From positions 1,762,485 to 1,826,484 of the forward strand of contig MU053431.1 in NCBI GenBank assembly GCA_013239625.1: 64,000 nt of DNA, in the 5' to 3' direction. This DNA comes from Lama guanicoe. Lineage: Eukaryota. The notes under the pieces are model-generated. The model worked only from the letters and a program-made list of their open reading frames with translations, was not told the origin of the DNA and did not search any database. The translations under genes were made by a program, and so were the position numbers. This document shows, piece after piece, positions 19,016 through 48,424 of this stretch; the first letter of the stretch is position 1; every line of letters starts with the position of its first letter.

Positions 19016-19019
19016 TACA

Positions 19020-20955: not shown

Positions 20956-21700
20956 ATTTTTTAAAAAATGTTAATCAGCTGTATTTCAACTTTAAAAATA
21001 GTTGATTTACAATGTTGTGTTAGTTTTTGTTGTCCAGCGTAGTGATTCAGCTATATACATGGATATTCCTCTTCATGTTCTTTTTCATCATAGGCTGTTG
21101 CAAGGCACTGAATAGGGTTCCCTGTGCTGTACAGTGGGTCCCTGTTGTTTATCTATTTTACGTATAATAGTGTCTGCAAATCTCAAACTCCCAAGTCATC
21201 CCTCCCCACCCCTTTCCCCCCGGTAACCATAAGTTTGTTTTCTATGTCAGTGAGTCTGTTTCTGTTTTGTAAATAAGTTCATTTGTATCATTTCTGAGAG
21301 TCCACATATAAAAGATATCATGTGGTATTTGGCTTTCTCTGTCTGACTTCACTTAGTATGATCATCTCTAGTTCCATCCATGTTACTGCAAATGGCATTA
21401 TTTCAGTCTTTTTCATGGCTGAGTAGTATTCCATCATATAAATATACGCCGCAGCTTCTTTACCCAGCCATCTGTTGATGGGCCCTCAGGTTGCTGCCAT
21501 GTCTTGGCTGTTGTAAACAGCGCTGCTGTGAGCACTGAGGTGCATGTGTCTTTTTGAATTAGAGTTTTCATCTTTTCCGGATGTATGCCCAGGAGTGGGG
21601 CTGCTGGATCATGTGGTAACTCTAGTTTTAGTATTTTAGGGACCCTCCGTACCGCTCTCCGTAGCGGCTGCCCCAGTGGACACGCCCACCAATACTCACA
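20956..21700 (-). mobile_element. Younger artiodactyl-type L1, 5'-truncated 3' end, nested in the older L1
   Basis: Well preserved and AT-rich (tagttgatttacaatgttgtgttagttt...gttccctgtgctgtacagt). ORF2 C-terminal peptide LKLELPHDPAAPLLGIHP...CTSVLTAALFTTAKTWQQP. Confidence 0.92.
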
Positions 21701-21739
21701 CACCTGACGCTTCTCTTGCTCGCTGCCCACCTCGAGGCC

Positions 21740-24519: not shown

Positions 24520-24945
24520 CGTGGACAGATGAATCCTGGGGTCATGGCAACAGAGGACCACAGACCAGGCCACTCAAAATGACAGAAGTCTATTCTCTCT
24601 CAGCTCTGGAGGCCAGACTGCAAAGGCAGGATGTGAGCAGGGCCAGGCTCTCTCTGGAGGCACGGGGGACAGTGCTTCCTGCCTCTCCCAGCTTATGGGG
24701 CCCCAGGCATCTCTGTCTGGTGGCCACCTGCCTCCCTCCTCTGCCTCTGTTGTCACATGGCTTCTCCCCTCTTTGGGTCTTCCTAAGGGCACTGTCATTG
24801 GATGCGGGGCCACCCCAGTCCAGGACGGCCTCGTCTTAAGAGCCTTAACTGCATCCACAGAGACCCTTTTTCCAAATAAGGTCATGTTCACAGGTTCTGA
24901 GGGTTAGACTGGACGTATCTCTTGGGGACCTCCAGCAACCCCGGT
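24520..24945 (-). mobile_element. MaLR LTR (MLT1B/C-like)
   Basis: tctcagctctggaggccaga, gtcacatggcttctcc, gaccctttttccaaataaggtcatgttcacagg. Confidence 0.88.
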
Positions 24946-27898
24946 AGTCCATGCTGCAAGGGACCAGGGCCGGCTCTCCCCGACAGAAGGCTGCCCCTGG
25001 CGAGCTGCCTGCCTGGGCCGTCTCGCCCCGGGCACAGACACTGAGCTCTCTCCTGAGCACTAGCCGGTTCCCCGGTTCCAGGCAGGAGCCAGCGCGGGGG
25101 CCCCTGGAAATGCTGGAGGAGGAGCAGAAAGGGGCCGGATGCAGACCTCGCAGCCTCCAGCGAGACTGCACGGGACAGCCTCAGGGCCGGCCAAGACGAG
25201 GCCTTCCGTGTCCTCAGTCCAGGAAACGCCCCTGAACCTGCTGCCAGGATGCGGCCCGGGTAGGGGTGGGGCTGGGGGAGGAAGGGGGACGCGGCCAGGC
25301 AGGCTGAGGAGCCCCTTTCCCACATAATCCCACTTGACCCTGTGGTGACCCTGTGAGGCAGGAACAATGAGCCCATCTTTGCGCCGAGGCGCAGAGGGGC
25401 TGGTGTTAGGCGGCAGCTTTCTGTCCCCTCTCCCAGATCCCCTCCGCCCTCTCTGTCCTGCCGGAGACGCCGAGCCCAGCTGTCCACGTTGCTGGCCCTG
25501 CCCCAGCCAGGCGAAGCCCATGGGAGGCGCCGGAGGGGCAGAGGGCGGGGGTGAACTCGGGGCCCGTGCTGCCCCGTCTCGGCCCTGCTGCGCGGCGGCG
25601 CCGTCGCCCTGCACGGCCGTGGGTTCCATCCCTGCAGCTCCCTCTGCCCCTCGGGCTCCCCAGGGTGACCCTCAGAATCCTGCCTCGCCCTGGCCAGCTG
25701 TCCCCTGGCCCACACCTGGTCAGGCTGTCCCTTGGCTGGAAGCTCTCCAGTTGCCTGTGGGAGTGTGCTGGCTGGTTCCTGCTGGCTGGTTCCTGCTGGG
25801 TCCTGCCCAACGCTGTGATGAGCCAAAGTTGAGCTCAGGTGGATGTGCTGACCACACATGAGCCCCCTGTAGGGGGACAGGTGCCTGTGACAGTCAAGGG
25901 GGGTGAGAGGGGGGAGCAGCTGCGGCAGGGATGGTGTGGCGAGGTCTGTGGCTCCCGGGGCCATGTTTTCTACTCCCAGCCAGAAACCTTAAGCACACCC
26001 GTGGGGTCTCTGAGCCTGGGCCAGGGTCCACGAAGGTGGCCCCTAGTGCCCCGGGAAGGCCGAGGGGACTCGTGTGCAGAACAGGCCTGGACTTCCTCCT
26101 GGGACCCGGCAGCTGAGATGGCTCTGATCTGAGTGGCTGGTGTGGATGCGGGACCCTGGTCAAGAGGCTGCACTGGCCGCAGGATGGGCCGGGAAGGGGG
26201 TGACGGGCAGGGAGGCTGGGCTGCAGGCAATTCCCAGGCGCATGGGTGCCCTGGCCCCTGACTGGAGCTCCTTGGCCCAGGCGCAGGAGGGCTCCTGGTG
26301 GCTCTGCCTTAAGACCCCAAATCCCTGCTCCGTCTGCCAGAACCCTGGTGGTTCCGGAAAGAACCAGGAGCTCCCCTCCCTGTCCTGCCCCCAGACAGGG
26401 GCCCAGAGGAGCTGCTGGGCAGCCGCCCAGGGGCTGGGGTCACCGGCAGCCTCGTGGCAGCCCAACGGGGAGCGTCTGGTTGACATTTAAAGCATTTAGA
26501 GCCGACCCCTGCCCTGCCTGGGCCGGCTTCTGCTGAGTTTTAATGGAATCCTTCCCTGACCTTTTTAACTAATTCACAAAACAGATGGGGCACCCCTGGG
26601 TCGACTCCCCGACATTCTTCCAGATGCTGTGAGCTGGGGTCATGGTGCAGGAACCACAGGTAAAACCCAAGCACCTTTGTGCCAGGAATCAGACAGAAGC
26701 GGATCTCCAGGGAGGCCTGGTCTCCAGGAGTGGCCACTCAGGCCACAGTTGCCTGGGAACTTCCACTTCTACTGCCAATAAATTAAACTTATTTTCGTTC
26801 CTGCTGCTCTGGACAAACAGCCACTGTCAGAGAGTGGAGCCCAGGAGGGCGGGCTGTTCAGGAAGGAAACCACAGGGGTGCCGGAATTCGGCAGGCCCCA
26901 GGCGCCCCCTTTCTCCACACTCTGTGGCCCTCCCGTGAGATGCAGCCGGCAGCCCCCACCGCTGCACGGGGGCCTGGGGGGACCCCTGACAGTCCCCTGA
27001 GGTGCTGGCTTTTAAAGCAAAGGGGAACACTGTACGAACATTGAGGAGTTTGTTTACTGATTCGGGGCTCAAGTGGGGCTGTCTCCACAAATAAGGGGGG
27101 ACCACCTACAGTGCAAAGCCGGATGTCTGCTCGTCCCTTAACCACTGAATGAGGTGACAGACGCTGGAACCTAACTACTCCCAACCCCGTATGATGCTCG
27201 TGACCCGCATGCATCCCTGCCAGGGCTCAAGGGCCACGCCATCAGCTCTGGGATTGCTTTGAAGGCCAGATGCTGTGTCCAGTCGGGAGGCTGGGTCCAT
27301 CAGCGGGGCTGGAGGCGTGGGCTCCAGTTCGTCAGGAGTGCCTGGTAGTGAGGAGAGGATTTCGGTGTCACCTGTGTTCATTGGTCCCAAAGGCTCCAGG
27401 TGCTCCTGGAGTCCTGGAGAGACCATTGAGTTCAATGGGGAAACATTATTTCATGAAGCCAGGTCAGGTCACGTTGGTCCCCTCCCAGGAGTCGTGCAGG
27501 CCCCGTCAGCCCATGGTCAGGTGCAGGGCCTCCGTGTACACACACTGCCCCACAGACTTGTCACCGTGGGCAACCGTGCATGTTGTGGACCCTCTCTGCA
27601 GCTGAAACCAGGGCTAGGAGAGAGGGGGACCCTGGGGAGTCCCAGCCAGGCATTTGCTAGGAACAGGTGAGTCCACGTGCTGGAGCGCAGTGAGGCACAA
27701 ACAGCTTGCCTCTGCCCCCGAAAATAAACAAGGCTGTCACTGCCTGGAACCGCGGCTTCCTTCCCTGTGACCGGGCCCGTCCAGCAGGCTGGGTTGGAGC
27801 CAGCTTCTGCGCTAAGCAGGGCTGCCACGCTCAGCAGAAGCGGCTCTGATGAGCATCCCTGAGGCTGGCCACTGAGCAGTGGCCTGGAGCCCCGGCTG

Positions 27899-27949
27899 GC
27901 AGCAGAGCGACTGTGGCAGGCAGCACAGCGACTGTGGCAGGCAGCACAG
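27899..27949. repeat. 21-bp tandem duplication, about 2.4 copies
   Basis: gcagcagagcgactgtggcag / gcagcacagcgactgtggcag / gcagcacag. Confidence 0.9.
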
Positions 27950-28774
27950 ACGGGGCAGCTGGACGTGGGTTTCCTCAAGGACATGTGTCCAGGGTGGCTG
28001 GAGGGAGCACCTCGGGTGGGAAGAAGTGGACCTTGGACCAGTGGTCATCTCTGGCTGAAAGCTTTTATGGAAAATGGCTCCTGGACCTCGGGAATCCAGG
28101 CCAACCGCCCAGGGCAGACCCCAGTCTGCAGGAGCTTCCAGAGGGCCAGCGGGGAGCTGAGGCACTGCCCCAGGGTGGGCAGGCATGGGTGCCCAAAAGC
28201 TGTCCCGAGGTACCGCTCAGTGCACCTGAGTGCTTCCCAGGAGTCTGAGGGGAGAGGCTCCTGGGCAAGGGCCAGCAGAGCGGGCCACGGGACAGAACAG
28301 CTGTGTCCTGGGCGGGACCAACCCAGCTCCCAGCTTCCTGCGTGGCTCACCTCGTGTCACAGCAGACAGTGCCAGGCGCAGCACGGCCTCAGATTGCCCA
28401 AAGCCCACGGTGACGTGGGGCCAAAATAGGGCCAATCCGACTCCTGGCATCCCTGCCAGGGCCCCCTGTGAGGACAAGGAGGAGCGACATTGCCTTACGA
28501 GCAGCTCAGGCTTCCTGAAGCAGCGAAGGCTTCCTGGAGGAGGGGCTGAGAGGCTTTTCAGTCCGGGGGAGGGGCTGGTTTGCTCTTCCCCAGGCTCTCC
28601 AAGCACCTGAGCTTTGATCCCATAGGAGGGAGGCCTGGGCTTCTTGGCTTTGATGCTCTCACTTCCCCGCCATGACCACAGTCCCCTCCTGCTCCGTTGG
28701 GGCCCAGGGTTGCCTCCTCCATGAAGCCCTCCATCCCGCAACCTCATGGCTCCCACGCAGGTATTTCCTCCCAG

Positions 28775-29480
28775 CCTGTCGCTTCTCATTCTCTTGGCAG
28801 TGCCTTTGCAGAGCAGAAGCTCTAATTCTGATCAAGCCAACTCATCTGCTTTTTTTCTTTTATGGATCATGAAAGATCCAAAAACTCGTCACCAAACTCA
28901 GGGGCACCTGGATTTTTCTCGTGTGTTATTATGTAGAAGTTTCCGGCCATTCTGAGTTAATTTTTTTAAGATTTAAGCCCCGGCTGTTCCCGCACCGTTT
29001 GTTGAAAGGCTGTCCTCTCTGCGCTGAGCCGCTGTGCGCCTCCGCCAAAGGCCGGCGGCTGTGCGCGCAAGGGCCTGGTCCTGCGCTCCCGGTCTGCTCC
29101 GCCCGCCTGTCGCCGCCTCCTTCGCCATCACGCGCTGGACTGCGCGCTACGGCGCCGTAGGTCCTGGCGTCAGCTGGCGGTCCTCCAGCTCCCTTCACCC
29201 TCAGGGCTGTGTTGGCCATTCTGGTCTTCGGCCTCCTCTCCGTGTAAATCTTAGAATCAGCTTGTCGGTATCTGCGAAGTAGCTTGTGGCGATTTTGACT
29301 GCGAGCAAGTTGAACCTGTAAGTGAACTTGAAGAGAATGAAGTCATAGCGACATCGAGTCTCCCGGCCCAGGAGCGCGGGCTCCCTCTCCGCTCGCTCGC
29401 CCTTTTATTTTTCCGCTAGAGCTGTGTGGCCTGCCCCCTGTGCACCCTGTGTGTTCTTTGTTAGAGTTACACCTGAAGGA
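28775..29480 (-). mobile_element. Old L1 ORF2 fragment with a GC-shifted core
   Basis: L1 anchors gcaccgtttgttgaaag, ttggccattctggtc and gtaaatcttagaatcagcttgtc. Collinear with the copies at about 20190-20560 and 47890-48300. Confidence 0.8.
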
Positions 29481-31739
29481 CTTCATCTGTGCTGCTGGCT
29501 GCACGTGGGGCCGGGCAGGGCGGCCGGATGCATGCTCCCCCCTGCACTTGCTTTGCCTCGCTTCCTGTCGGGGCCGGGTGCGCGGACGTCTGGAGGACAG
29601 GGGAAGACCCTGTGTCGGGATTTGGAAGTAAAGACCGTGGCCCCCAGCTCTTCACGCCGAAAATTTCCAAACTTCCTTCTTCGACTGGCGTTAGCAGTTA
29701 GACCGTTTAAACAGGAAGTCTGCCTGGGGCCCATCACGGGGCGGGTCACGCAAGGGCCGGCCAGGCCATTCAGCTGCCACAGAACTCCAGACGCCCCTCC
29801 CGGTGTGGACCCCAGGCTCCCTCCGATGGTCCAGCTCACAGACAGGCCACCGAGGCCCTCCGTCAGTGCCCGGGGCCCGTGGGGAGAGCTCCCGGTGCCC
29901 CCGCTCCGTGTCGGGTGATGGGCAGGTGGCGGGTGTGTGTGAGGTGTCCCGGGGGCCCGGGGCCTCGTCCTGCTCCCACGGCCCGGCCGAGGCCAAGGAA
30001 GCCCTCGGTCTGGGTCCGAGCCGCACGCAGCCACCTTTGGCTCAGGAGGAGTAGGGCAATCAGACAGGACGTGGGCGGCCCTGCTCCTCCCTGTCCCCGC
30101 TCTGCCAGAGTTCTCCAGCAGCTTCTCCCCTCCTCCCCGCCCGCCCGCTGGGATCACGGGGGTGGGGGCGGGGTGGCGGCCGGGGTCCCTGGCTGCTGAC
30201 GTCTGGGCTCGTGGGCGTCTGCTGGCCCTGCCAGGTCCCTGAAAGAGACGTGGTGGCCCAGCCGGGCTGTGTCCCGGGAGCCGTGGAAAGGACAGCCTGC
30301 AGGGGAGTCACGTGCTGTGAGTATTCATGCCAGCATGTGACTTGCAAATCCCAAGTCATTTAAATGTCATCAACAGTGTGTGGATGTCTTTTCGGGATAA
30401 GATCTGTCAGAGAAAATGAATCTTGATTACCAGTCACAACAGGGAAACAGCCCCCACGTCCTGGTCCGCATCCCTGTCCTCGCAAGGCGGCCGCCTGGAG
30501 GCACATCGTGTGACCATCCTTCAAAGGCTCAGCCTGGGGGGCGGGGGCTGGAAATTAGTGCTGATCTGCAGAGGGGAAGCTGTGAGTTCCCGCAGGAGCC
30601 GTGGGCTCACACGCTTGCCCACACTCCTCCCCGCGGGCTGTGAGCACCCTGTGGGGGCAGTGGTATCTCTCGGGCAGGGACACTCCAGGCTCCCCGCGTA
30701 GGGCCAGCCAGCGTCCACTCCAGTGCCCCAGGCTGGGAAGAGAAGTCCTAGAGCACGTGGCTGCTGCTGACCGGCCCAGAGCCTCTGCCCGGTGATGCGG
30801 GCGCTGGGGGAGGCTTGGGGAGGGCTCAGCGTGGTGGTCTAGCCTTTGAGACAGAGGGGCACGCCACCCTCCAATGGCTGCTCTTGATCTGGGGATCTCA
30901 GCTGATGAGGGAGAAGGTTCTGGGCTGGGTGAGCAGGCCTCACACGCTGGGCTAGTACCGAAGACGTAATTGCTGTGTGGGCCGAGTGACGCGTGGTGAC
31001 AGCCCAGACGTGCTTGCCCATGTCCCTAAGGACAGTGTTGAGAGCCAGCTCTGACCCCCACAGCCACCTTCTGGGCTGGGGACCCTCTACCGTCCCCGTT
31101 TGTGGGTGAGAAGACAGGTTCGGGTGGGGAGGCCACCAGCTCAGCACGCCCCTCCTGGCAGCCATGGGACCCTGTCCACCTCTTGTCCTGGCTGCCCCCA
31201 CCCATCCCGGCATCTCGTCCTCGGGGCTTAGCTGCTTGGGGTGACTGGTTCACTTCTGAGTCCTGGCAGGTGACAGAGCAAGAGAGGAGGGGGCCTTCCC
31301 TGGAGCCTTCCCTGCGGGGCAGCGGATCTGTTCACTCACATCTCGGTGCACCAGCATGCTTCGCGGGGATGCCGAGAAGGGGAAGGTCTGCTTCCGGAAG
31401 CTGTGACCCCAAGCGCAGGCTGCCCGGGGGCCCTGGCACTCCTGCGGCGTTCTCGGAGGGGCCTCCTGCATTAATCAGCCCAGCTGTTCTCGCAGCTTGT
31501 TTTATTAGGAAAGACCCCTCCTTGACCTCGTGCAGATTCTCATGCACCCTGTCTGGGCGACGACCTGGGGGCCCGGGGGCTGCTGACCCCTGCTGACCAG
31601 AGTGGCTACCAGGGAGCCAGCCCGATGCCTCCACACGGGCTGTGGGATGGACGCCACCTGGAAACCATTCTGCAGGGCTTCTCCTTAGAACTCCGGCTGC
31701 CCTGTGCGTGCGGGGGCCGGGCCGAATCCACGGGATCTT

Positions 31740-31945
31740 GAACCACGCACCTGTGATTCAAGAGTGCTCGTAGGAAGGGACGCAGGCCCAGTCTCTCCTG
31801 AATGCTTTTTATACTGGCTGCATGTTGGAGCGACAATATTTTGCACAGATTGAGCTCAACAAAATACATTAATGATGTTATGTTCACCTGTTTCTGCTGT
31901 TCTCCGGTGGCTAGAAGAGTTTCTCTCACCACTGGCGCAAACTGC
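31740..31945. mobile_element. hAT-Charlie DNA transposon remnant (MER33-like)
   Basis: catgttggagcgacaatattttg...aaaatacatt...ttcacctgtttct...gtggcta is collinear with remembered MER33. Confidence 0.65.
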
Positions 31946-32079
31946 ACCGCCTCCGGGGAGGCTGGGCCTGTCTGTGCGCGCAGTTCTTTTGTGCATTGGG
32001 GCCGTTCTCCAGTGCCCCCCGAGTTTTCCCCCAGGTTGGGGGCCCCTATACTGGGACAGCGCATCTGTCGGTTTGCCAG

Positions 32080-32360
32080 CTGTTCTGGACGGAAATGTGC
32101 CCCCCATTTATGTGTTGAACACCCCCGAGGCGACGGTATTAAGAGGTGGGGCCTTTGTGGGGGGTTGGGTCAGGAGGGTGGACCCGCTTTGGGATTAGTC
32201 CTCTTGTAGGAAGAGGCCAGAGGGCCCCGCAGCCTCTTTCAGCTGCGTGAGGACAGAGGCGGCCTCAGCAGAGCCCATCCACGCCTGGCCCGCCGACCCT
32301 CAGCGTCCAGAGCTGTGAGAAACAGGTGCTACCGTTTACCCGCCGCTCAGTCCACTCAGC
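32080..32360 (+). mobile_element. MaLR LTR (MLT1A/MST-like)
   Basis: tatgtgttgaa...ggtattaagaggtggggccttt...gggattagt...tccagagctgtgagaaa. Confidence 0.8.
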
Positions 32361-32369
32361 TGGATGTCC

Positions 32370-32500
32370 CTTCACTCGCTCATTCACACAGTCAGCATGT
32401 GAGTGAGTGGGGGGCACCAGGCTCTGCTCCCAGGCAGCCCACGGGGTGAGGGGTGGTGGTTGGGGACAGCAACCAAGAGACAAACACACCATCACGTGTG
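32370..32500 (-). mobile_element. L2 3' end remnant
   Basis: ttcactcgctcattcac...caccaggctctgct. Confidence 0.45.
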
Positions 32501-33089
32501 CCAGCGGAAGGGAACCCAGGACCGGGAGCTCTCCCTCCGGCCCCTCCGGCTGCGCTGGGCCCCCGGGGGTGGGGGGCAGAGGGCAGCACGGCTCTAGGGG
32601 GGAGGGGGAGGGGAGGAGGGCGGCCTGCTCCCATGAGGTGCACCTGGCGCCCAGACTGGCCCCATTCACAGTTATGCAAATCACCGTCACTGCCATTACT
32701 GGGGTGGGGCCGTCGGAAGCCGGGTGGCGGGAGGGGACCGGCGCCTCCTTGGCTCCGCGCAGGCTGCTCGTGGTTCAGCGGGATCCCACTTCTGCAGCGA
32801 AAGCCCGGCGTCGGCGGCTCCACACACTCCCGGTCTAACAAATGAACACATTACGTCTTTGTGACAAACACAGTGTCAGGAAGGAGATTAAGTTCCTTTC
32901 GTGGGTGGAAAAATGATGCAGAGGAAGTGGCCCAGGACCAGATGCCCGCTGCAGGGAACGGCCCCCTCCCTCCTTTATGCCGGATGGTGGCCACCGGTCC
33001 AGGTGCCTCCCCAGGTGGGCGGCCACTCTGCCCATGGCTCCCTGGGGGCGGATAACCCCCAGGAGCTGTCTCCGTTCCCCAACTCCTGC

Positions 33090-33337
33090 CCTGGATGCTC
33101 TGGACAACCAAGCTGGGGGCATCTCACAGCCCTGGGCGGGAAGTCCAAGATCCAGGCACCAGCAATGACCGTGTCCTCACGTGCCTTGGGGGGTGGGGCA
33201 GGCTCTCCCTGGGGCCTCTGATCCCATCCTGAGACCCCACCCTCAAGACCTGATCACCTCCCAGAGGCCCCACCTCCTAACACCTCGTCTTGCCGTTAGG
33301 ATTCGACACGTGACTTTGGGGACACACATTCCGTGCA
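33090..33337 (-). mobile_element. MaLR LTR (MLT1A-like)
   Basis: gggaagtccaagatccaggcaccagca...tcacctcccagaggccccacctcctaacac...tttggggacacacattc. Confidence 0.8.
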
Positions 33338-33920
33338 GGAGAGTCGCCCCCTCTGTGTAATGTGAGGCAAGTCCCCCTCCTCAGGGGGAGTGAGGGTAAA
33401 AGAAGTGACATGAGGTAAATGCATGGTGACAGGGAGCTTCGCCCGGAGCCGGCGAGCCTGTGAGGCTGGGGGGGCGGGGGGCTGGGAGCCCAGTTGATCT
33501 CTGTTTCTGGTTCGGAGCTTTTTTCAGAGGGGTCTGGTCTGAACGCCAAATTTGCGCTGTGTTCAACCACGCTTCCTTCAGAGTCTAACTTTCCAGGCTG
33601 TAACTGTCGTCTGAGCCTGCTAACGTTCATCCCAGCACAGAGACCAGTGCGTAGTGGCCACGAAGCCTGGGTGTCAGCTGAGGGGCAGTTGTGCAGAAAC
33701 ACGACCCTCGGTGGCAGCAGACCCATCAGGAGGCATGGGGTCTGCTCTGAATCTGGGGTGTGGCAGCGGGACAGCCCAGATCCCAGCAGCCTCCTCACTG
33801 GCCACTTTGTGGGAGGCTGAGGCCCCCAGGCCTCTCTCCACCGTGAGGCCCTTCCCTCGTTCAAGTGACCGCCCGGGTTCTCTGTGAGCCAAGAGCAAAC
33901 GGACGGGACCCGGCGCCAAG

Positions 33921-34011
33921 CGCGTACACACGTGGCCAGGCGCGCTCACACACAAACACACATAGACCCTCGGGCACACGCACACAGAGACACACAAACA
34001 CACGCGCACAG
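33921..34011. repeat. Degenerate (CA)n-rich simple repeat
   Basis: acacacaaacacacata...cacacgcacacagagacacacaaacacacgcgcac. Confidence 0.7.
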
Positions 34012-34143
34012 TAAGCCAGCCGCAGCACGGCCGACGTCTGGGGGCTCGAGGGAGGGCCCCCAGACACGTCAAACCGCAGGCCCCGTGAAGGACGCCAGGC
34101 CCCGCCTGCACCTGGGCTCGGCTGCCCAGGGCCCACTTGCGTT

Positions 34144-34151
34144 TGACGTCA
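34144..34151. promoter_or_regulatory. Full palindromic CRE (TGACGTCA)
   Basis: Exact 8-bp palindrome with intact CpG, followed by CACCC, in non-repeat intron sequence. Confidence 0.3.
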
Positions 34152-34671
34152 CACCCACCTGAGTCTGAGCCAGCGGCGCAGAGCCAGCTCTTCTCTTTCC
34201 AGGTGTAACCGCACGCTGCTGGTTTTTCAAGGAGTTAGACTCACAGGTCAGACTCTCTGATGGGACTCTCTTTACAGGAAATAAAAAATAACACCGCCCG
34301 CCCCCTCCCCGTGCTCCTTACCCTGCTCTGCCGTCTGGAGGGAGGGGTGGGCCACCAAAGTGGTGCCCAGCTGCCTTTATGACACCAGTCCCCACCCCCC
34401 ACAGCCAGCCACAGCAAACTGCCCCTAGAACCAGAGTCTATAAAGAGGTGAAGAAAAACAGTCCCCAAGTTCCAGGGGCAGGATAGCCCAGCCAGCCACA
34501 CAGACCACCCCTCCCCGCCACCCCCACTGCGCCCTCCTGCCCCCTCAGGGCTTCTTGTCAGTGCTTGCAGTGGGGGGGGGTGTATTTTATTTAAGCAAGA
34601 GGTGTTCCCCTCCAAAAAGAAAATGTAATAGGGGGGCAGTTAAATTAAAAAATACAGTGCTCCATAAGACA

Positions 34672-35100
34672 GTGTATCAGCTAGACTCTGCCACATAACA
34701 GAACAGCCCCAAACTAACTGGCTTAAAACAACAGCTATTTATTTGCTCGTGATCCATTGGATTGCAACTTGGGCTGGCTCAGCCAGTCTCAGCTGGAGTC
34801 ACTCATGTGGCTTTGGTCATCCTGTGGCTTCACCGGTCCTGGATGGGTCTGAGATGGCCTCATTCACCTGTGTGGAGGGTGGGGCTGGGCCTCTCTCTCC
34901 AGGCTAATCAAGGTTTCCTCACGTTGGGGCAGCCACATCCGAGAGTGAGGGCAGCAGGGCTGGGGCCTGGCCTGGGAGGCACACATCGACTCTTCCACTG
35001 CGTTTCACCGGTCAGAGCCAGCCCAGGCGGTGGGGGGGGGGCAGGCCCCACCGCTTTTTGAGAGGAGCAGCCAAGTCTTGTTCAGGAGAGTTCTGGAAGG
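34672..35100 (-). mobile_element. MaLR LTR (MLT1F/G/H-like)
   Basis: tgtatcagcta...ccccaaact...tggcttaaaacaacagctatttatttgctc...gatggcctcattcac. Confidence 0.78.
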
Positions 35101-35588
35101 AGTTGCACCGCAATCTGGGATGTCTGGGGTTAGCACCTCGGCCCTCAGATTACACCGCACGGCTCCGGGGCTCTCCATGCTGATTAGACAGGCTCAGCCC
35201 CTGGGAGGTCCTGGTGACTGCGGGTCATCACGGTTCTGTCCGAGGGCAAGCATGCCACTTAGTGGCATGTGGTGGCCGGTGGTAGCTGAGCCAGGGACAG
35301 AGCAGGCACAAGGGGCCAGAGCCTAGCGCGGCCTCAGGGGAAAGCGGCCACATCGATCAGATGTCTCCCGGCCCAAGGGGTGACCTGGAAGCTGCTTTTC
35401 CCATCACAGGAAAGCTCCATCCCCGCTCAGTCCGCGGCAGCGCTGTGGGCCTCACCCTGGAGCCTCTGCGTTGCTGAGAACTTGTCTCCTTGTTGCTGAG
35501 TTTGCGGGGAGGACGGCAGACGGGCCAGAAGAACCAGAGACCTCCCGGCACCGACCGAGACACCACCAACCACACTGGAGCCTCCGAG

Positions 35589-36338
35589 CGGTGGACGGCT
35601 GCGTCCAGCGCGGCTCGGGACCGTGTCTGAGGACAGGAGACGCGAGGCTTAAGAAACAAAGAGACAAAGTAAAGAGCAAAGATGGGGCCAGGGGACTCGA
35701 GAGCTCGTGGATCGAGAGTGCCGGAAGCCTGGTCGGCATCATGTTTATTAGGAGTATACGGCTCAGAAAAGCTTGGGGGGGGGGCTTTAGATGTTCCCTG
35801 CGGCAAGCACTGAGCTCTGCTTGCGAAGGGGTTGGTTAAATCCAAGCTGATCCCCTCCAGGAACTGTCGCCCTCCCCGGGTATGTAAGATTTATGAGCGC
35901 ATCGTGTTACTGCCTCCGGGACACCACGCGATAGCAAACATCTCCTCTGGGTCAAACCGCGTGCTTTCACGCCAGAACAAAGTTCTGTCAATGGATGACC
36001 CGGCTTTCCAGGACCGTGCATCGTGTGCCCTCCCTCGTGCCCTGATGGTCAGTCTCAGGGCAGCTCTCCACAGATTGTCTTTAGCGTGGTCCGTGCTGTA
36101 GGTCATTTCCTGCGTAAAGCATTAAAACAGAGCAAGCATGTGCGTTTGAAGCAAGCAAGTGTGAACATAATATTTTAAGCGCACGGAAGTTTAGGTGCGG
36201 CTTGTTTCCCAGCAGCGGACCCGCCCGCTGGCTCGGTGCCGGCTCGGCCACGCAGGGACCGGGCCCACACAGGGCGGCCGAGGCCCGTGTGCCTGCAAGC
36301 GCCCACTGCAAAACCGTCAGAAGACTCTTCTCGCCGCA
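35589..36338 (-). mobile_element. Probable ERV2 (betaretrovirus-like) solo LTR
   Basis: Minus strand begins TGCGGCGAGAAG. AATAAA on the minus strand at 35744-35749, followed by a pyrimidine-rich U5-like tract (plus strand aaacaaagagacaaagtaaagagcaaag) and a terminal hairpin TGGACG-gctg-CGTCCA. No clean target-site duplication. Confidence 0.5.
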
Positions 36339-37189
36339 GAGAGAGGGTATTGACAGGAGGAGGGGACAGAGTTAGGCTGAATGAGCCTCGGTCAGTGAAG
36401 TCACATCATCACACACCTGGGACTGTCCAGACGCAGTGATTAGCGCCCAGGCTGACGGTGGGAGACACATGTTAGCACCACAGGAAGAAAGGACTGGCCT
36501 CCAGCATGGCCAGAGCTGACAGGTGACCCCAGTTTGCGGGGACTCACGCACCCACCTCAAGGGGGAATGGGGGCCCCGAGTTCCCGCCCACCCCCGCAGC
36601 AACTCCCCACAGGTCTGCATTTGGCTGGGAGGGCAGCCCGGAGATGCCCCCACCTGAGTTCACCCTGTGATTCTGCTGCAGGGGAAAAGCCCCATTTCAG
36701 GGATGCCCCATACGTGCTCCACAGGGAGTCACTGTGGGTGGGGAGGGGCTGGCAACTCACGGTGGCTCCGGCGGAAATCAGGGTGCTGGTGACCCCAGGC
36801 AGATGGACTTGTCCAATGACTCAGGAAAGCCTCTCTGCGCAGGACATTTCCAGCGAAAAGAGCCTCAGTTGTTGGAGGAAAGACACAAGGAGGACCCTCT
36901 GACCCAGGGGGTCATTAGCAGCAAAGACAGCCATGTGGGGCTCCCAGGGACAGGAGCCGCGCCGCGGCCAAGAGCCGCCCGCACAGCCGAGGGTCCGGGG
37001 CACCTCCTCTAGGTGTCACCCTCGCCGCCTTCTGCCTGCCCTCGCCCCCACATCCTCCTATTCCCAGGCCCCCCCAGGCCCTCCCAACCCTCCACATGTC
37101 CATCCCCGCAGGCACCATCCTAGTACAGACTGCTTCACGTCTCCCCTGGGCCTGGGCCTCCCTGGTCCCCCTGCCCCCAGGGCCTGCCC

Positions 37190-37510
37190 ACTGCACCAGC
37201 AGAGCTCTCCCTAAATGCAAATGTGCAACCCTTCCTGTTTCACCCCTGCCCCGCTTCCAAGACCAGGAGGAAACTGCCTGCCCTGTGATCTGAACCTGCC
37301 CGGGCTCCCCTCCCTTCTCAGGCCCGTGGGTGCCCCTCAGCCCTCAGGTCTCCACATAGAGGCCCCTCCTCCAGGAAACGGCCCCTTTCCCCCACAGGCT
37401 GCACCTCGCGCTCACCTCGGTGCCGCGTTGGCGCACCTGTCCTGTACACTCAGCTCAGTGCCTGTGCAGGGAGCCCTGCACACAGCAGGTGCTCGGTAAA
37501 TGCTTATGAA
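37190..37510 (+). mobile_element. L2 3' end remnant
   Basis: Ends ctgcacacagcaggtgctcggtaaatgcttatgaa, the L2 terminus. Confidence 0.65.
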
Positions 37511-40408
37511 GTTTAGGCGAGGAGGGTCGGTGCCTGGTGCAGGCAGCGGATGGAGCGTGGAGGCTGGTGGGCCAGTGGCAGTGGGGATAAGCAGAAGGGA
37601 AGGTGCAGCCAGTAAGTGCAGGAACATTCCAGAAGGGACGCAGAGCCTGTCCGTGCTCAAGTCTGAGGCTCCCCGGCTGTGCGGGGAGGAAGCCGGCTGC
37701 CCTGGGCCTGTCTCCAGGGCCTGAGTCACAGGAGGCCTGCGCAGCGCAGCCTCATTTCTGGAATTGCCTGGGCTGCCCCCAAGTTCCCGCAGGACAGGAA
37801 GGGCTAGTGAGCCTTGAGTGGAGCCGCCGTCCTGGCTCTCAAGACAGCGAGGCCTCCCCGGGCCCGTCAGCCCCCTCTGGCCCTCAGCTCAGGCTGTCAC
37901 AGCGCGCCAGGCGCCCAGGGCCCTCCGGTGGGGGAGCAGGCAGGGCGGAACCGGGCTGGGGGCCAGGAGCACGTCTGCCTCGGCCTCGCGAGGCCCCGGG
38001 GGTCGGGCCTTCAAGGTGGCCCAGCCCACCCCCGCGCTGTAGGCAGGAGACAGGCCCAGCATGAGGCGAGGACACACCCTGGTCACGTGGCAAGACCCCA
38101 GCCCGGGCTGCTCTGCTCTTCTCTCCAGTTCTAGAAACAGAGGTCAGCCCACATGGCCCGCCTCTCACGCGTGTGTGGAGAACGGCAAGCCTCGCAGACC
38201 CCGTGCCGTTCATAACACGTGCAGACCGCCCTCTCCTGCAGAGGCCCCTGCGCGGCCGGACAAGAGCGGAGGGGAGCGCCGCTGGCCGCGCTGAGGCCCG
38301 CGGTCTCGGGACAGGGGATGGATGGTCTTGAATAGATCCGGTCACTGGGGAGTGGGTTTGGGAGACGCGGGGCAGCCACCAGCGTGCCCTCTTTACTGAT
38401 TGACTTTGTCTGAGAGAGAAGGGCAGCCTGGCCCCCCTCACTGGCGGGGGCTGAGCGGGGGCGGTCGTGCAGGACCCGCCCTCTCTCTAAGGCACACTTG
38501 CCCATAAGCACAGCCATTCTGGGCGGAAGCCCCAGGAGGCCCAGCCGGAGGAGCACCAAGTGTCACTTCCCAGGCTCAGCCTAGAGCACAGGGTCCCCTC
38601 CAAACACAGGGGCTGGTCAGCTTGGGAAGAAACTAGAGCCAAACGCTGGCCGAGCGGAATGAGTCCCATCCTGCTTGGGGGCCTGGGGCACAAGGGTGGC
38701 CGCTCCCAGCCCCCTTCCCTCTCACCGGCCGCTTGGCTCTGGGGCAGCCGTAATCAGATTCGCCTAAAGCAGGCAAGGAGCTCTAAGTCTGTGTCCAGAG
38801 CCAGAGGTCCTCAGGAGCACGGGGACCACCTGCCAATGGACGGCCATTTGAAATCGGCAGGGAACAGGATATTTGCTTAGCCGCCCACACGACATGGCAA
38901 GAAAACGCTGAAAATTGTGGGGCTGGAGATTCATCTTCCAGGGGTGACAGGAACATGCGATGGGGCTGCCCCCTGCCACCCCTGGAGGTGCGGGACAGGC
39001 CCCCGGACTTCAAGCTGTGGCCGGAGGCACAGTTCTTTTCCAAGCACTTTCTGAATCGCAGTCAACACTGGCTTAGACCTCTCGATCCCAAAGCATGTGG
39101 GGTCCAGTCTTGCAAGTCTCACTCTGGGGTACGGCAGGGATTCGCACAGTTCCCTGGAAATCCACACCCAATCCGCGGCCCTGGGGCCCTTGATTAAGAC
39201 CAGGTCCCCAGGTTTACCTGGCACGGAACAGAGAACATTCTTTGATGGCTTGAATTCCGGGGCACAGGCAGAGCCTCCAGAACCCTGTGGTGAGTCGGCA
39301 CCAGTTTTAATCCTGACTCAAATCAGCACCTACATGTTAGAAAAACAGAAACAGGAGTCGGCGACCTGACCACACGGGCTCAGGTTTGGACAGTGGGATA
39401 AGCAGTGGCCAGTTCCTACCAACCCGAAGCTGCCCTGCAAGGCAGGCTTGGCCACAAGCAAGAAGGCAGCCACTGTCGCCATGTGAGGGGCAGTTGGGGT
39501 GAGAACTGGGGGCATCGCCTGCGGGCTGTGGTCTCCACGCTAGGTGACCACTCAGGGGGCTTCCTGCCCCAATTCTACGGGGCCAGAGGTGGGGCCCACG
39601 CCCGGGATCGGACTTCCGCCCCCATCCTGTGCCTGTCCTTGCCAAGGGTTTTTAAAACCCCATTTATTGTGACTGAGCAGATGTCCCACTGATTTGAAAG
39701 TTCTCATGGGCTTTTTAGCCAGAAGATACTTGGAAACACGGCAAACAGGCCTTCAGCCCATACCCTGAGGCTTCTGTGCCGCACAGATGGCTTCAGTGCA
39801 GTTCTGAGAGGGGCTGGCACGCCTGAAACATGACTCACCACCCCAGTTGCCGTGCCCAGGGCAGTTAACTAGCCCTCCACCTCCAGCTCACGCCGAGGTC
39901 AGGCCCCCCGCACTTGCCCTGTGTGCTGCCGAGGGAGGGGTCGCATCCTGTCCCTCGAGGAGGACAGAACCCCAGCACAGGTGGAGGGGCAGGCGCGTTG
40001 GGAAGGCCATTTCCCTAATCCAATTGAGGGTCTCCCAGCAGCCTGGCTGGTGCCAGGGCTGCAGCAGAGCCGGGAGCAGACAGGATGTGGCTGCGGGGAC
40101 TGGGGGGGGCTTCTGTTTCACCAAGTTCATGCTCAGACTGCGGCCTCTGTGGCTCCAGCAGGGAAGAGGCTCCCGCGTACAGGGCTGCTGGCTGCACGGG
40201 CAGTGGGGCTGTGGGCAGGGTCCTCCTGCTGAGGCTACAAGCTGCTCACCTGCCCCTCATCAGAGGACAAGAGGGGTCTGGGGAAGAATGGAGTATTCAT
40301 GATGGCCCCTGCCCCCACCTGGCTGGGGGGGTCCCCACCCCACTCCCCAACCCCCGTTCTTCCCGAGCCCAGGCCCTCTCCCCATCGGGGCAGCCCTTCC
40401 CTTCGCCG

Positions 40409-40429
40409 GATACTGTCCGTGGTGCTGAA
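40409..40429 (-). promoter_or_regulatory. RE1/NRSE (REST binding site) in intron 1
   Basis: Minus strand reads TTCAGCACCACGGACAGtatC against the consensus TTCAGCACCACGGACAGCGCC. The first 17 positions are identical and the 2-nt spacer is canonical. Confidence 0.88.
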
Positions 40430-42734
40430 CTCCAGGCGCCCTGGGGCTCGCGGCTTCTCTCCACCCTGAAAGTCCCTGGTCCGTCCTCTCCCAGAAATTC
40501 CAAGCCAGAAGAGGAGCTCGGGGACCGGGGGGGCAGAAGGGAGATCAAAAGAAGGAGAGCGAGATGGACAGACGTTCGGTCTTGGGAGATCACCAAGGAG
40601 TCGTGGACTTTGGATTAGAAGTCGTTCTCATGAATTTGCAGTCACCCAAAGTGTCCCCTCTGGGAAGCTGTGGGTGGGGCACGCACCCACCGAAGCTTCA
40701 CCGGTGAGGACAAGGTCCCCCTGCTCTCGCCCACAGTCAGCGGGTGCCCCACTCGTCTGCTGTCTGCTCGCAGAGCGGCCTCACGACACGGGAAGCGGGT
40801 GCCGGGCTGTGGTCAGACCGGATCTGGACTTTTCCCCCTGTAGAGCGAGAACAGCCACTACGTCATAGATCTGACGCAGGGATTCCATGAGGTGACAAGT
40901 GCAGAGCGCTGCCCGCAGAACGTGCTCTGCCAAGAGTCAGCTAAAGTTGCGTCAACTAGAGAGTGGAAGTTAGGGGGACTTAAAATGCCCTTTTCCGTAT
41001 TGAGCCAAGACCCAGCACTAACGCCACCTAATGGTGGGATGGGCTGCGTTGTGAGGAGCGGAGACTGTGTCCCAGGGCAGCAGGCTGGGCCCCCAGCTGC
41101 ACACAGTCCATGGAGCCCCCTCCCCGTGGTGACCTTGCAGGCACTAAGGTGACTCACGAGGTGCCTCAGAAATGCAGGCAGTTCTGGGGGAAGTTTGGGG
41201 CCCCTCCCGGAGACACACGCTGGGTGGGCTTCTCCGCACATGCTCGGGTCTGCAGTCAGGGCTGACCCACAGCCCCCGGGGTCCTCGACGCTGGTCTGTC
41301 CTCTTTCCCAGGTGCCTGTCCGCCCTGGACCACGTGTACCCTGCTGGGTGGCCGAGCTTTGAATGCTAGACCCCAGCAGCATCCAGAGGGTTGAGGTTCT
41401 CATGAGATGGGGGTGCTGGAGGACAGAGGGTCCTCCGGACGATGTCAGCCCTGGGGAATTCTGGGACCTGTCACCTTGAAGGACCTTTCCTGCCTCCCAG
41501 CCCTGGTGTTCCACCTCTGAAACGAGGGTGGATGCACTGAACTCTGGTCCCAGGGCGGCAGGGTGGGGCGTGTGGCCCTCCTGTAACCGTGGGGGCAGGG
41601 ACTTGGGCACTTGTCAGAGGACGCACATGTGTTCCATTCAGGTGCTCTGGCTTCAGGAGGACGCGCCAGGAGCCTCCCAGCCCCCCAGCCTCTCCCTGAG
41701 TCGGCCTGTGCCGGCCTCAGCTAGGCTTCTCTTCAGAGGGCCGCCCTGGGCATAGAGCTGTCTCCTTGCTTCACGGACCTGCCAGCTGCTCTCTGCTTGT
41801 TCTTTTCACTAGACCATGACCTTGGCCTGCCTTTTGGTCATTCTCCATGTGTGGATGCGTTGTAACTTATAAACCAGCCCGAGGGGTGAGTGTCAGAGCC
41901 GTTACTGGAGTTCTGCTTTTTGAGCAAGTCTGCAAAGAGTGACGGCGACACTCAGGGGCTCTGGAGTGACTCACATTGCTGCTCTGTCACCAGTAGTGGC
42001 CAGGAGGGAGGGGGCTTTTCAGCTGGGGGTTAGAGGGAGGTGGCCCCTAAGGCCTGGGCCTGGCTGGGGTTGGTGGTCTTCTGGGGGCCCTGGCCAGCGG
42101 GGCTGTCCCAGTGGCTCCACAGGGGAGAGTTTGGACAGGAAGCCCCTCCTCTCCGCTACCCCCGCCCCCGGAAGCCTCTGGAGCTACTGTATAAGCCTCT
42201 GGGTTTTGCGAACACCCTGAGCGGTGTTTTGATATTTTGCACCTTCCCACTCACCGGGGGCTGATTGTTGAGCCGAGATGCTCAGCGAGCCCGGGGGCCG
42301 TCTCTTCTCTTAAACACAATGGGATCAATTAGAGAGACAGGCCAGTACAAAACAAGCGATCGCTCCTCAGAGGAAGGGTAGATGGGACGACAGCCGTGAA
42401 GGAAGGAGGCGGCAGAGCGTTATCCAGGCATGAGGACCCCCACCCCCGGCTGCGGGCCGGGGCTGGGCCAGCTGTGTGCATCCCACTGGCACCCGCACCT
42501 GTCTGCAGACACAGTCGAGGCCAGCCCTCCCTCCCAGGCACACCTGTGTCCCTGTCCACTCTTTTTGTTGTTCAATCATTTCACTTTCTCTCCTTCGAAA
42601 CATTACAAATACTGGAGGGCAGAGACCAGGCCCTGAGTCTCCAGCAGGACTGGCCACTGGCAGTGCCCTCAGAGCACCACCCCAGCTCCCAGGCCGAAGT
42701 ACTGATCCTGTGTGCCAGCAGGCATGAACCCTTC

Positions 42735-42870
42735 TGTCAGCACCATCATCGTCCCCCTGTTAGTGATGAGAACGCTGAGGCCAACAGGCCCCTCTGGAAC
42801 TGCCTGAGGGCACAGCTGGTCAGCAGACAGGCCAGGGCTCCCGTCTGTGTGAAGCCAAAGTCCCCAGCCC
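42735..42870 (-). mobile_element. MIR
   Basis: gatgagaacgctgaggc...actgcctgagggcacagctggt...gccaaagtcc. Confidence 0.65.
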
Positions 42871-43554
42871 CCAGGCGCTAAAAGCCCCAGGTTCCTCAAC
42901 CCACAGACACCCTCACCCCCAGGTTCCCCAACCCCAGGCATCCTGGAACTTCCTGGTGGTCCTACCCATCTCAGAAGTTTTCAGCTCAGGTCAGGGAGAG
43001 GGAGGGAGGCAGGGAGGCATCTAAACATGTCACCTGGCCCTCAGAAGACCTATCCTCCCCCAGGCAGGCTGCCTGGTACGGTCAGACCTTGCTGAGTGGT
43101 CAGTCCAGACAGAGATGGAGCATGCCTGGCCACTGTCTCAGGGACAGAAAGATGGGCTCTGAGGTGAGATCTGTATCTGCCCAATGCCAGGACCTGGATT
43201 CTCGAGGCTCCAGCTCTGGGATCTGTGTCCCCCTGGGCAACCTGGGGCCCAGGGCTGGGTCCCTGCCCTCGACATCCTACAGTCTGAGTGAATGAGACAG
43301 GAGGGCCCAGGGTCATAGTTACAGGTATGTTTGGAGGGCAAGGTGGGACAGGAATTCCTCCCAGGATAGAAAGAATTTATTTTTTTCCATCAATTAGTTT
43401 TATAGCAAACATTTACAGCAATGCCTAAGCCATTTCATCTTTTAAATTCCAACATACATAGCGAAAAGCAAAAGTTCTATGATTTCTTCTAGCAGTCTTA
43501 GAGCTTTTATTTCTATGTTTTCATCTTTGCTCCATTTTTTCAGTGTGAGATCTC

Positions 43555-43900
43555 TGTGAGTTAGGGGTAAAAGTTCCAGGAACTCACTCAGATTGTCTTA
43601 AGGGGAATAAAGGAATATTTATTTTGCTCAAGAAAAACTTCAAGTCTAGAAGTGATGGCTGCAGGCATAGCTGGATCCAGGAGCTCGAATGATGTCATCA
43701 GGGAGCTGTCCTTTAGGCTGTGCTGGCTCCATTATTAAGCAGGCCCTTGGGAAAATGGCACTAATGGACACAGAAACAGTTTTCCAGCTCAGCGGCACCC
43801 TCCCCCCTTCCAAAGGTGGTTCTCTTTCCTGGGGCTGACCCTCACACGACAAACATGATTGGTGCAGGGTTGAACACGTGGCCAGCATTTGTCCAATGAG
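43555..43900 (-). mobile_element. Old MaLR LTR (MLT1J/K-like)
   Basis: aaggaatatttatt...caggcatagctggatccaggagctcgaatgatgtcatcagg. Confidence 0.65.
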
Positions 43901-46503
43901 AGCCCACTTGGTCCTTTTGGAATGTGCTCATTGGCCAGGTCTGCAAGGGGGCGGACAGTCCCGGGGAAGCACAAGGGAGGTCCTGGGAAGGGGCGGTGGG
44001 TGCTGGGCGCACAGAGACAGCAGGTCCTGAGTGTCCAGGCCCCGGGCTGTGCCGGCCGTCGCCCACCTTCTCCCGCTGGCTCAGACGCCACCCCTACCAT
44101 GTTCCGCGTTTGCCTCATCGGGAGCGATTTCTGGCCTCTCTCCTGCTCCTCTGATTTCTTCGTGCCAAACTGTTCTCATTAACGTCTTTCTGGTAGCTGG
44201 TAAGGCCGATGCCACCCCGTCCCCTACTGACCTGTCACCCTTCCTTTCCAGAAGTTTCCTGGCTAGTCTTAGATTGTTTTTTTCCACTTGAATTTTAGAG
44301 TCAGCCTGTCTGTTCACAAGTGTTCTCACCTGTAACTGGAGCAGACGCACAGAGGCAGCACAGCTAGTCCGCGTCCACGTGTCTATGTCCCAGGAGGGCC
44401 CTGGCTGCCCTCCTAACCCTTCTGTCTCTCCTGCGACGACACTTGCCGTGTCTCCTGGGGACTTTGCGCAGGGGTGGGCTCCTCCCCTGTTCCCAGAAGC
44501 AGGGGGCAGAGAGCGGAAAGAGGGCACAGGCTCCCTCCTCCGAGCTGTGAGCCTTGGCGAGAGAAGGCGGACCCCAGGAGAGGGGTGGGCCCCTGGCACC
44601 CCTACAGTCCAGATTCACTCCTCGTCTCCAGGCCAGAAGGCACAGGGTGACCAAGGGAAGTCACCCCCACTCTGGAAGCCAGTGCTGGCCCGAGCCTCTT
44701 CGGGGGGCCGTCTCCCTGCTCTGGGACCACAGGATCCAGGGCCTGGACTTCTAACTGGAGGAGCCACTGGGGGCCTCAGACCAGACCCCACAACCTGCCA
44801 GCCTGGTCCACTGCTCACGGCCCCCAGAGGTGACTGTTTTTGCTGCCTGTGCACGGCGAAGTATGGTATTTCAAATGTTTTGACATTTAAAATCTGTGTT
44901 GGAGACACTCGTTCTGTTTAAATTATATCCAGCAGTGGTGACTCACAAGGAATCAGTTTGTCTCCTGGGCCGGGGCCCGGCGTCCCCTGCACCCCTGCCC
45001 AGCCCCTGGCCCAGAGCTGCCCCTCGGCCGCGCCAGCCCCTCAGTGTCCCTCAGAAGGTGGACTCCAAGCGGGGAGTGGAGAAACCGAGGAAGGTGGGGT
45101 GGGCCCCCGTCTCTGGACCTGTAGACACAGGAGAGAAGGGTGCCTGGCAGAGATGCTCCCGGGACCCAGTAGGGTCCCAGCTGTGGAAAAGGCCCCACTC
45201 GAGGGCCCGGCGGCCCATCTCCGGAGTGTTTGTCCTCTAGTTCAGCGGAGTCTTTTTCAAAGGGAGCTGCCGGCAACCCCAGCCGCTCTCTCCCGGAGGC
45301 CTGGCGTCCTCCCAAGCGGGCTCTGGAGCGCCACAGGGCGGGCAGGATCTGCGGAGGCCTCGGCCAGCGTCCCAGAGAGAGCGGGTATGAGCTGCTGGAC
45401 AGACACCTGACCTCAGGGGGTCCAGGGAGCAAACCCACCCACCTGCCAGAACCTCCGGCCCTTCTTGGCTGCCTTGTCCTCCATGGCCGCTGCCCGTATT
45501 AGCAGGACCCAGCTGGACTGTCCTCACCCTGGTGAGACCATCACAGCTGTACCATCGAGGGGGCCTCTGCGCAGGACCCGCAGCTCTGCTCTCAGGGCTG
45601 CAGGCAAGCCCGGGGGAGGAGGCATCGCGAGGAGTCAGCGTAGGGCCCAGGGAGCCCCCAGGGCAGCACCTGAGACCTTGTAAGGAACCGCAGCTGCCAG
45701 GCCAGGCCAGCGCAGGTGTCTGCCCAGGAGCAGCCTAAAGCCTCCTCCAGTCTGAAGTTCAGAGAGTGTCAAGGGCAGCGCGGCAGGGACAGAGAAGCTC
45801 CGGGCTGCGGCAGGAAGCCTCAGGCTGTGAGCGCCTGAAAGCACAGGCCTCGGAATACGCGGTGAGGACCCACGTGCCCAGCAGACGCCGCGAGGCTGTT
45901 ATCACACGGCCTGTCCTGAGCCGCGGCGCCAGCTGGAGGAGGCCGTGGCCGCTCAGGCTGAGCACAAAGGGCCAGGCTCTGGCTCAAGTCCAGGTCCAGC
46001 CATCTCTGAGCCGGTGACTTTGGCAGGCCCCACAGTGCCCCGAGACTCAGCTTCCCTGGAGGCAGACTGCTGCCCCAGCTAGAGGTGCCAAAGGGAAGCA
46101 CTTTTCAACGCTCTGAGAGGCTGTGCCGTGAGGTGGGGCGGGGAAAGGAGCTTCCCTTTGACTCCTAACTGTCCGCGTGCGGGGTGAGGGATGCTGGCCC
46201 GGCCTGGCGGTCCTGGAGAGCAGTCAGGTGGAGCCACATCCACGTCCAGACCTGGGAACATGGAGCCCCAGCCCTTCACTGCAGCCAGGACGCCTCAAGG
46301 TCTCTCTCCACCCCATCTACAGGCTGGACCCCGCACCCAGGGGCTCCCCAAGGTGGCGGAGAGTCTGCGAACCTCCTCAGAGCTAGGGTGGGAGAGCAGG
46401 CAGAGAGTCGGTCGGGTGAGGGGCGGGCCAAACGCCACCCACACTCCAGGCCCTCGACCCCCGCTGGCAAGTGTCCGATGCGCCCTTCCCCGTCCATCTG
46501 CAG

Positions 46504-46705
46504 ATCAACACCTTCATGTCCTTCATCTTCCCCATGGTGGTCATCTCCATCTTGAACACCATCATCGCCAACAAGCTGACTGTGATGGTCCGCCAGGCGG
46601 CCGAGCAGGGCCGGGTGTGCACGGCTGCGGACCAGCACAGCAACTTCAGCATGTCCATCGAGCCCGGCAGGGCCCAGGCCCTGCGGCACGGCGTCCAGGT
46701 CTTAC
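46504..46705 (+). CDS. NTSR1: NTSR1 coding exon 2 (TM5, ICL3), 202 nt
   Basis: Acceptor ccatctgcag|ATC. Translates [36 protein letters not shown]...[15 protein letters not shown]. Donor TAC|GTACGT, phase 1. Confidence 0.97.
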
Positions 46706-48333: not shown

Positions 48334-48424
48334 GTGCCGTGGTCATCGCCTTCGTGGTCTGCTGGCTGCCTTACCACGTGCGGCGCCTTATGTTCTGCTA
48401 CATCTCGGACGAGCAGTGGACCCC
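48334..48424 (+). CDS. NTSR1: NTSR1 coding exon 3 (TM6, ECL3), 91 nt
   Basis: Acceptor gtgtcgcag|GT. Translates (R)[29 protein letters not shown](P) with the CWxP motif. Donor CCC|GTGAGT, phase 2. Confidence 0.97.

Follow-up and report, generated by a model that had tools for sequence, protein, structure and literature searches.

An exact RE1/NRSE core in intron 1 of NTSR1, a predicted REST site of ordinary type

Intron 1 of the neurotensin receptor gene NTSR1 in this Lama guanicoe genome carries an exact RE1/NRSE core, located in the 64-kb stretch of DNA analysed here (hereafter the window). Such cores are recognized by REST, a repressor of neuronal genes in tissues other than nerve. Our reading, which we consider reasonably probable when taken as a whole, is that REST likely occupies this element in stem cells and non-neuronal cells, that the element is probably orthologous to a strong REST peak in intron 1 of human NTSR1, and that it would only damp NTSR1 from a distance of 28 kb. 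Predicted from the motif class, the CpG footprint around the core and the human peak, REST occupancy of the site is highly likely. Judged by its sequence, the RE1 in NTSR1 intron 1 is well supported as a genuine yet ordinary REST-type site. What is new here is the perfect RE1 in NTSR1 intron 1 of this genome; the human REST peak in NTSR1 was already known.

On the minus strand, TTCAGCACCACGGACAG matches the core without a single mismatch at 40413-40429 (Table 1), as the initial annotation of this DNA had described. Both half sites are exact, share the same orientation and lie 2 bp apart, which is the canonical RE1/NRSE spacing. Even with three mismatches allowed, this was the sole match to the 17-mer core in the window, and the exact 17-mer was found in none of 100 shuffles. 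The number of exact matches expected in 128 kb ranged from 1e-5 to 3.5e-5 under Markov models of orders 0 to 5, in agreement with the earlier estimate of about 1e-5. Neither a second canonical, half or atypically spaced RE1 in the 64 kb nor a second site within approximately 100 bp, as in a tandem RE1 cluster, was observed.

Table 1. Coordinates of the RE1 and of the NTSR1 exons in the window
Feature	Position	Strand	Remarks
RE1/NRSE core, 17 bp, exact	40413..40429	-	left half TTCAGCACC, 2-bp spacer AC, right half GGACAG
Weak 3' tail of the 21-bp motif, TATC	40409..40412	-	1/4 match to CGCC
5' flank, 12 bp, GGGCGCCTGGAG	40430..40441	-	same in register as flank of a duplicated RE1 pair on another contig
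Site and 25-bp flanks holding 6 CpG	40384..40454	.	likely footprint of long-term low methylation
NTSR1 exon 1, coding part	12579..13301	+	matches solved NTSR1 chains
NTSR1 intron 1, 33.2 kb	13302..46503	+	RE1 27.1 kb after donor, 6.1 kb before exon 2
NTSR1 exon 2	46504..46705	+	
NTSR1 exon 3	48334..48424	+	
NTSR1 exon 4, coding part up to stop codon	49540..49789	+	

The host gene is an intact NTSR1, whose four exons have GT/AG ends and join into a 421-aa frame. Compared with solved NTSR1 chains, exon 1 gave an E value of 2e-124, far above motilin or ghrelin receptors. The ATG at 12579 puts the RE1 27.8 kb downstream, and the exon structure agrees with the location in intron 1 that was first annotated.

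The 3' end of the 21-bp motif is weaker than its core. The TATC tail agrees with CGCC at one of four positions, leaving three positions off consensus as previously noted, and ranks fourth lowest among the 51 perfect cores of this genome, for which the majority tail is C, G, C, C. With the genome's own frequencies, TATC falls approximately 6.4 bits under consensus. Because 8 of the 51 perfect cores match as poorly, a CGCC tail is a preference and no requirement. The label 'high-quality' that had been given to the site therefore suits the exact core and is too generous for the tail. Like the canonical 21-bp RE1/NRSE (JASPAR MA0138.2, as used in PMC9903721), the site has exact half sites, a 2-bp spacer and, as with many targets, an intronic location, but it differs from it in the tail. 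In the available part of that study, the cut-off for silencing is a FIMO score above 20.86 with MA0138.2 and one strong RE1 scores 34.1 (PMC9903721); with a tail costing about 6.4 bits, the estimated matrix score of the NTSR1 site probably passes this cut-off.

The 21-mer at 40409-40429 was unchanged in all eight assemblies compared, which come from five organisms (one possibly the source of this DNA), and it is therefore no assembly error. Across these eight assemblies, all of them from near-identical relatives, 12 places varied in 1,001 bp and none of them fell in the 21-mer. As such invariance is expected with a probability of 0.78, it carries no weight for conservation. At position 40404, 5 bp past the 3' end of the motif, a flanking CpG shows a C>T change in one of the eight assemblies (X9), and the G run behind 40526 is longer by one to three bases in all eight.

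Genome-wide, we found 53 exact 17-bp cores, or one per approximately 600 windows of 64 kb, against none for a reversed control pattern and a chance expectation of 0.24 per genome. Of these, L022, L076 and L077 appear to be duplicates, which leaves 50. With a degenerate RE1 motif there were 1,710 genome matches compared with 212 for the control, and the canonical RE1/NRSE class is thus over-represented with either pattern. The CpG form of the core was also commoner than its TpG variant (53 vs 25 copies), the reverse of neutral decay, indicating selection or protection from methylation. Hence, the low chance figure reflects membership of a selected class and does not make the site unusual inside it. 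It adds one to a class of well over a thousand sites per mammalian genome.

The surroundings of such cores are also marked by their CpG content. Pooled over 49 other independent perfect cores, CpG o/e was 0.58 up to 25 bp away and fell to 0.26-0.32 at more than 300 bp, a gradient also shown by the TpG-class cores (from 0.45 to 0.17). The site in the NTSR1 intron has 6 CpG in its 25-bp flanks, a count reached by 3.2% of intron positions, and 7 CpG in its 50-bp flanks, reached by 18%; its own CpG excess is modest and varies with the flank width chosen. According to the available part of PMC4499139, REST peaks are hypomethylated and gain methylation upon REST knockout. The CpG excess around the site may be read as a mild hint, independent of the other evidence, of long occupancy. 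Over the whole set (L001-L082), CpG retention was about twofold higher within 25-50 bp of perfect cores. Together with the 53 vs 25 ratio, this CpG-retention footprint might be used to rank REST sites where a species lacks ChIP data.

With regard to a repeat-borne or duplicated origin, the 351 bp around the site had a single genome match, in a search that skips very common words. No tandem array runs over the site and no Rfam family was found at it, the four Rfam hits lying far under their cut-offs. Its flanks gave no BLAST match in an all-against-all comparison of 30 RE1 loci, and their local alignment scores against the other loci were at background. As far as tested, the sequence is thus non-repeat, as it had been called, and we rejected a repeat-borne or duplicated origin on these genome, BLAST, tandem-repeat and Rfam comparisons, which would be compatible with an old LINE2 or MIR remnant. 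Repeats, LINE2 above all, have spread RE1s, as described in the available part of PMC1557810. The NTSR1 site resembles the LINE2- and Alu-associated duplicated RE1s of that study in sharing a short flank with another genomic RE1, but the sharing ends at 12 bp and the NTSR1 surroundings are single-copy, which leaves a repeat origin unsupported (PMC1557810).

This shared 12-bp 5' flank is identical, and in register, to the flanks of a duplicated RE1 pair on contig C3322 (L021 and L022), and similarity between the site and the C3322 RE1 stops after it. When the L021/L022 duplicate pair is left aside, the shared runs in the remaining 432 pairs that can be formed from the 30 loci reach at most 4 bp. 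An 11-bp part of the flank recurs inverted beside L008. A 9-mer of the flank was present no more than 20 bp upstream at 3 of 76 sites and in 0 of 1,784 background windows, a comparison in which the 9-mer was chosen after seeing the sites and in which CpG words are enriched near all RE1s. The 20-mer made of flank and left half had three genome matches with one mismatch allowed, and gapped searches yielded 6 matches vs 1 and 7 vs 0 for the reversed controls, which are richer in CpG, so that chance is understated. Among the eight gapped matches beyond the known full sites, only L083 runs on into something like the right half. These searches show no family, and we rejected a family of extended motifs that would include the 5' flank. 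The shared flank may be an extended footprint, a partner site, a trace of an old common origin or a coincidence.

The two RE1s on C3322 (at 2525874 and 2739318) are perfect and belong to a 93%-identical inverted duplication, 213 kb apart. At the L021 locus there is, in addition, an exon for an immunoglobulin domain (Pfam Ig_3, E 0.0014, below cut-off). We take this exon to resemble those of LILR/KIR-type receptors. A strong predicted REST site lies in an apparent immune receptor cluster; among the matches listed in the literature, none dealt with RE1s of the leukocyte receptor cluster.

Whether the site had already been catalogued, a question raised by the initial annotation, is largely answered by a REST-bound site tabulated in human NTSR1 (PMC4499139). 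In Table S2 of that study, which comprises 8,199 human ESC REST peaks and was available in part, a single peak is assigned to NTSR1, at hg19 chr20:61,372,799-61,373,124 with a score of 2243. It is flagged as alignable to mouse and unbound in mouse ESC, and by hand count it is 7th by score among the 138 rows on its table page, all of them in the non-conserved class (PMC4499139). The peak falls in NTSR1 intron 1, within which 60,821-60,846 kb of build 35 lies, once a presumed offset to hg19 is applied. It presumably lies about 13 kb before NTSR1 exon 2, compared with 6.1 kb for the site described here. Apart from this difference in spacing, the two are alike in gene, intron and strength, one being the sole peak there and the other the sole RE1 in the window, and they are likened by position and signal, from a table that gives no motif sequence (PMC4499139). 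As for mouse, the available part of the mouse sheet of PMC4499139 holds no Ntsr1 row, and the supplementary tables of PMC2573930 (mouse ESC) have no entry for Ntsr1, though Ntsr2 exon 1 is listed. The Ntsr2 site is also a case of REST binding in a neurotensin receptor gene, but in a paralogue, in a first exon and in mouse (PMC2573930, available part). A region of variable blood methylation in human NTSR1 (chr20:61371016-61371809; PMC7670623) lies approximately 1 kb from the human REST peak, assuming the same build.

HAR1A and mir-124 were both identified by Rfam on contig C866, which carries the site at 1,802,893-1,802,913. By gene names given to translations, we take this contig to be collinear with human 20q13.33 (CDH4, TAF4, GID8, NKAIN4, COL20A1, CHRNA4, KCNQ2). 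The RE1 of mir-124 on this contig agrees with the published human one in its 17-bp core and in spacing (approximately -2,424 vs -2,437 in human). Two RE1s flank mir-124 (L119; C866:2,091,396 and 2,094,341), of which the upstream one matches the published human site. Each of the other three human peaks scoring above 2000 in 60.5-62.1 Mb on that table page has an RE1 in the matching C866 interval, either between CDH4 and TAF4, as a pair 12 kb before HAR1A, or upstream of CHRNA4, when presumed human exon and gene coordinates and a presumed hg18-hg19 offset are used (PMC4499139, available part). The CHRNA4 match is poor in spacing (4.9 kb vs approximately 17 kb), and the interval matches are loose because RE1s are dense in this block, with at least 11 near-perfect ones between 1.94 and 2.25 Mb of C866. 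HAR1A is followed at 6.4 kb by a near-consensus RE1 with a full CGCC tail and preceded at 12 kb by a tandem pair whose members lie 51 bp apart (L094, L120, L125; C866:2,033,034-2,051,876).

Seven sites on the 2.88-Mb contig C866 are perfect at positions 2-9 and 12-17, so an unrelated site of this kind would fall in a 33-kb intron with a chance of approximately 0.08. From this figure, the synteny and the shared intron, we judge it very probable that the site is the orthologue of the human NTSR1 REST peak. If this orthology is right, the label 'non-conserved' would stand for a site that mouse has lost or does not use, and not for a primate innovation. The modest value of the site would then be evolutionary, as its perfect state in another mammal that is not a rodent suggests that mouse lost the element rather than that primates gained it.

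Whether REST controls NTSR1 through this site is a separate matter, and the data lean against a strong effect. In the strongest version, site-bound REST would loop to the NTSR1 promoter and largely account for the silence of the gene outside neurons, with REST loss de-repressing it in tumours. The perfect core, the strong human peak in NTSR1 and a 64-kb window without any other RE1 are in favor of this version. In the available part of PMC9903721, strong canonical motifs silenced when sites were assayed genome-wide with a reporter (though only 31% of the canonical sites in human did so), EHMT2 and MIER1 marked the silencing sites, and deletion of five strong, distal RE1s raised a nearby gene at three of the five loci. 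However, NTSR1 is absent from a 1,480-row list of genes changed by REST loss (PMC4499139 Table S7), which covers REST knockdown in HEK293 (two sets), MCF10a and T47D and knockout in mouse ESC, mostly with microarrays of limited coverage, so that a real NTSR1 effect could be missed. Neither of the two mouse ESC data sets has an Ntsr1 peak. Moreover, most bound genes are not de-repressed, as only a small minority of them responded to dominant-negative REST in mouse stem cells, and REST potency falls within 2-3 kb of the start site (PMC2573930, available part). Tumour NTSR1 has been attributed to TCF/beta-catenin acting at the promoter and to promoter methylation or acetylation in a review of neurotensin in digestive cancers, the available part of which does not mention REST (PMC7710720). 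In the full-text literature covered, mostly outside subscription journals, no stated REST-NTSR1 link was found among the matches listed, and a paper naming both mentions the two separately. NTSR1 or its coordinates were also absent from the supplements of PMC4055426 (perhaps without full peak lists) and PMC11025195; their absence from those of PMC11071216 is uninformative, as the positive control SCG3 was absent too. Strong direct silencing is thus unlikely. In the interpretation of the initial annotation, the real REST site holds, given the 53 vs 0 count, the CpG footprint and the human peak, whereas direct repression of NTSR1 is not borne out by the knockdown and knockout list, the unbound state in mouse ESC or the distance from the start. 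The same applies to the proposed role in neuronal restriction or tumour de-repression, for which documented promoter-level explanations of tumour NTSR1 are at hand.

REST could also bind and silence at the site with another transcript as target, such as that of a gene nearby, a long non-coding RNA or the product of a cryptic promoter in the intron. This is what happened at intronic RE1s deleted by CRISPR in DLGAP4, SLC5A5 and EPHA10, which share with the NTSR1 site a strong intronic motif: in two of the three validated deletions the RE1 controlled a neighbour and not its host, and only the EPHA10 site, approximately 500 bp from the promoter, controlled the host (PMC9903721, available part). 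Unlike the latter, the NTSR1 site is 28 kb from the start. The methylation-variable region near the human peak (PMC7670623) would also fit another target. Nevertheless, no Rfam family was found at the site and a crude filter passed no coding exon over the 20 kb preceding the window and the 10 kb following it, so that the NTSR1 start is the nearest identifiable gene start; we find a different target quite improbable. A recent chance or repeat-borne motif, functionless and unrelated to the human peak, seems to us very improbable. Such a motif could arise, given about 0.24 chance cores per genome, the spread of RE1s by LINE2 and other repeats (PMC1557810, available part) and the 12-bp flank common to the site on the other contig, but 53 cores were seen, the flank is single-copy, the similarity to the other-contig site does not go beyond 12 bp, and the human intron holds a strong peak.

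We therefore return to a site that is likely bound by REST and would only damp NTSR1. With its zinc fingers REST recognizes the two half sites, and SIN3/HDAC, CoREST and EHMT2 complexes are recruited to it. In the NTSR1 intron, REST would bind both half sites and bring in co-repressors, and it would keep the spot low in methylation, with preservation of the flanking CpGs as a result. Bound REST would lower the activity of the intron and perhaps that of the promoter. The site would be one layer beneath promoter-level control and alone would not keep NTSR1 off; in mouse it would be lost or unused. Any measurable effect of the site on the NTSR1 level is the least certain point, possible in our view but somewhat doubtful. 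A more far-reaching proposal, which we regard as rather unlikely, is that REST targets NTSR1 directly, by way of an ancient silencer in the intron that humans and this lineage have kept and mouse has lost or leaves unused. Mouse models would then miss a REST-loss route to a druggable tumour receptor, and the CpG-bearing 5' flank beside 3 of 76 perfect cores may mark the site of a partner factor. If deletion of the site raised NTSR1, this would tie REST loss to a target for imaging and drugs in digestive and neuroendocrine tumours.

Other features of the gene were observed in the window. A short element at approximately 21930-22035 on the minus strand presumably resembles a tRNA-derived camelid SINE; ARAGORN predicted no tRNA at this element. 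CpG o/e was raised inside the intron at 19001-20000 (0.70) and at 29001-30000 (0.75), which may reflect repeats or CpG-rich intragenic elements. The N-terminal tail of NTSR1 (12579-12740) is approximately three residues longer than that of the best-matching solved chain (421 vs 418 aa).
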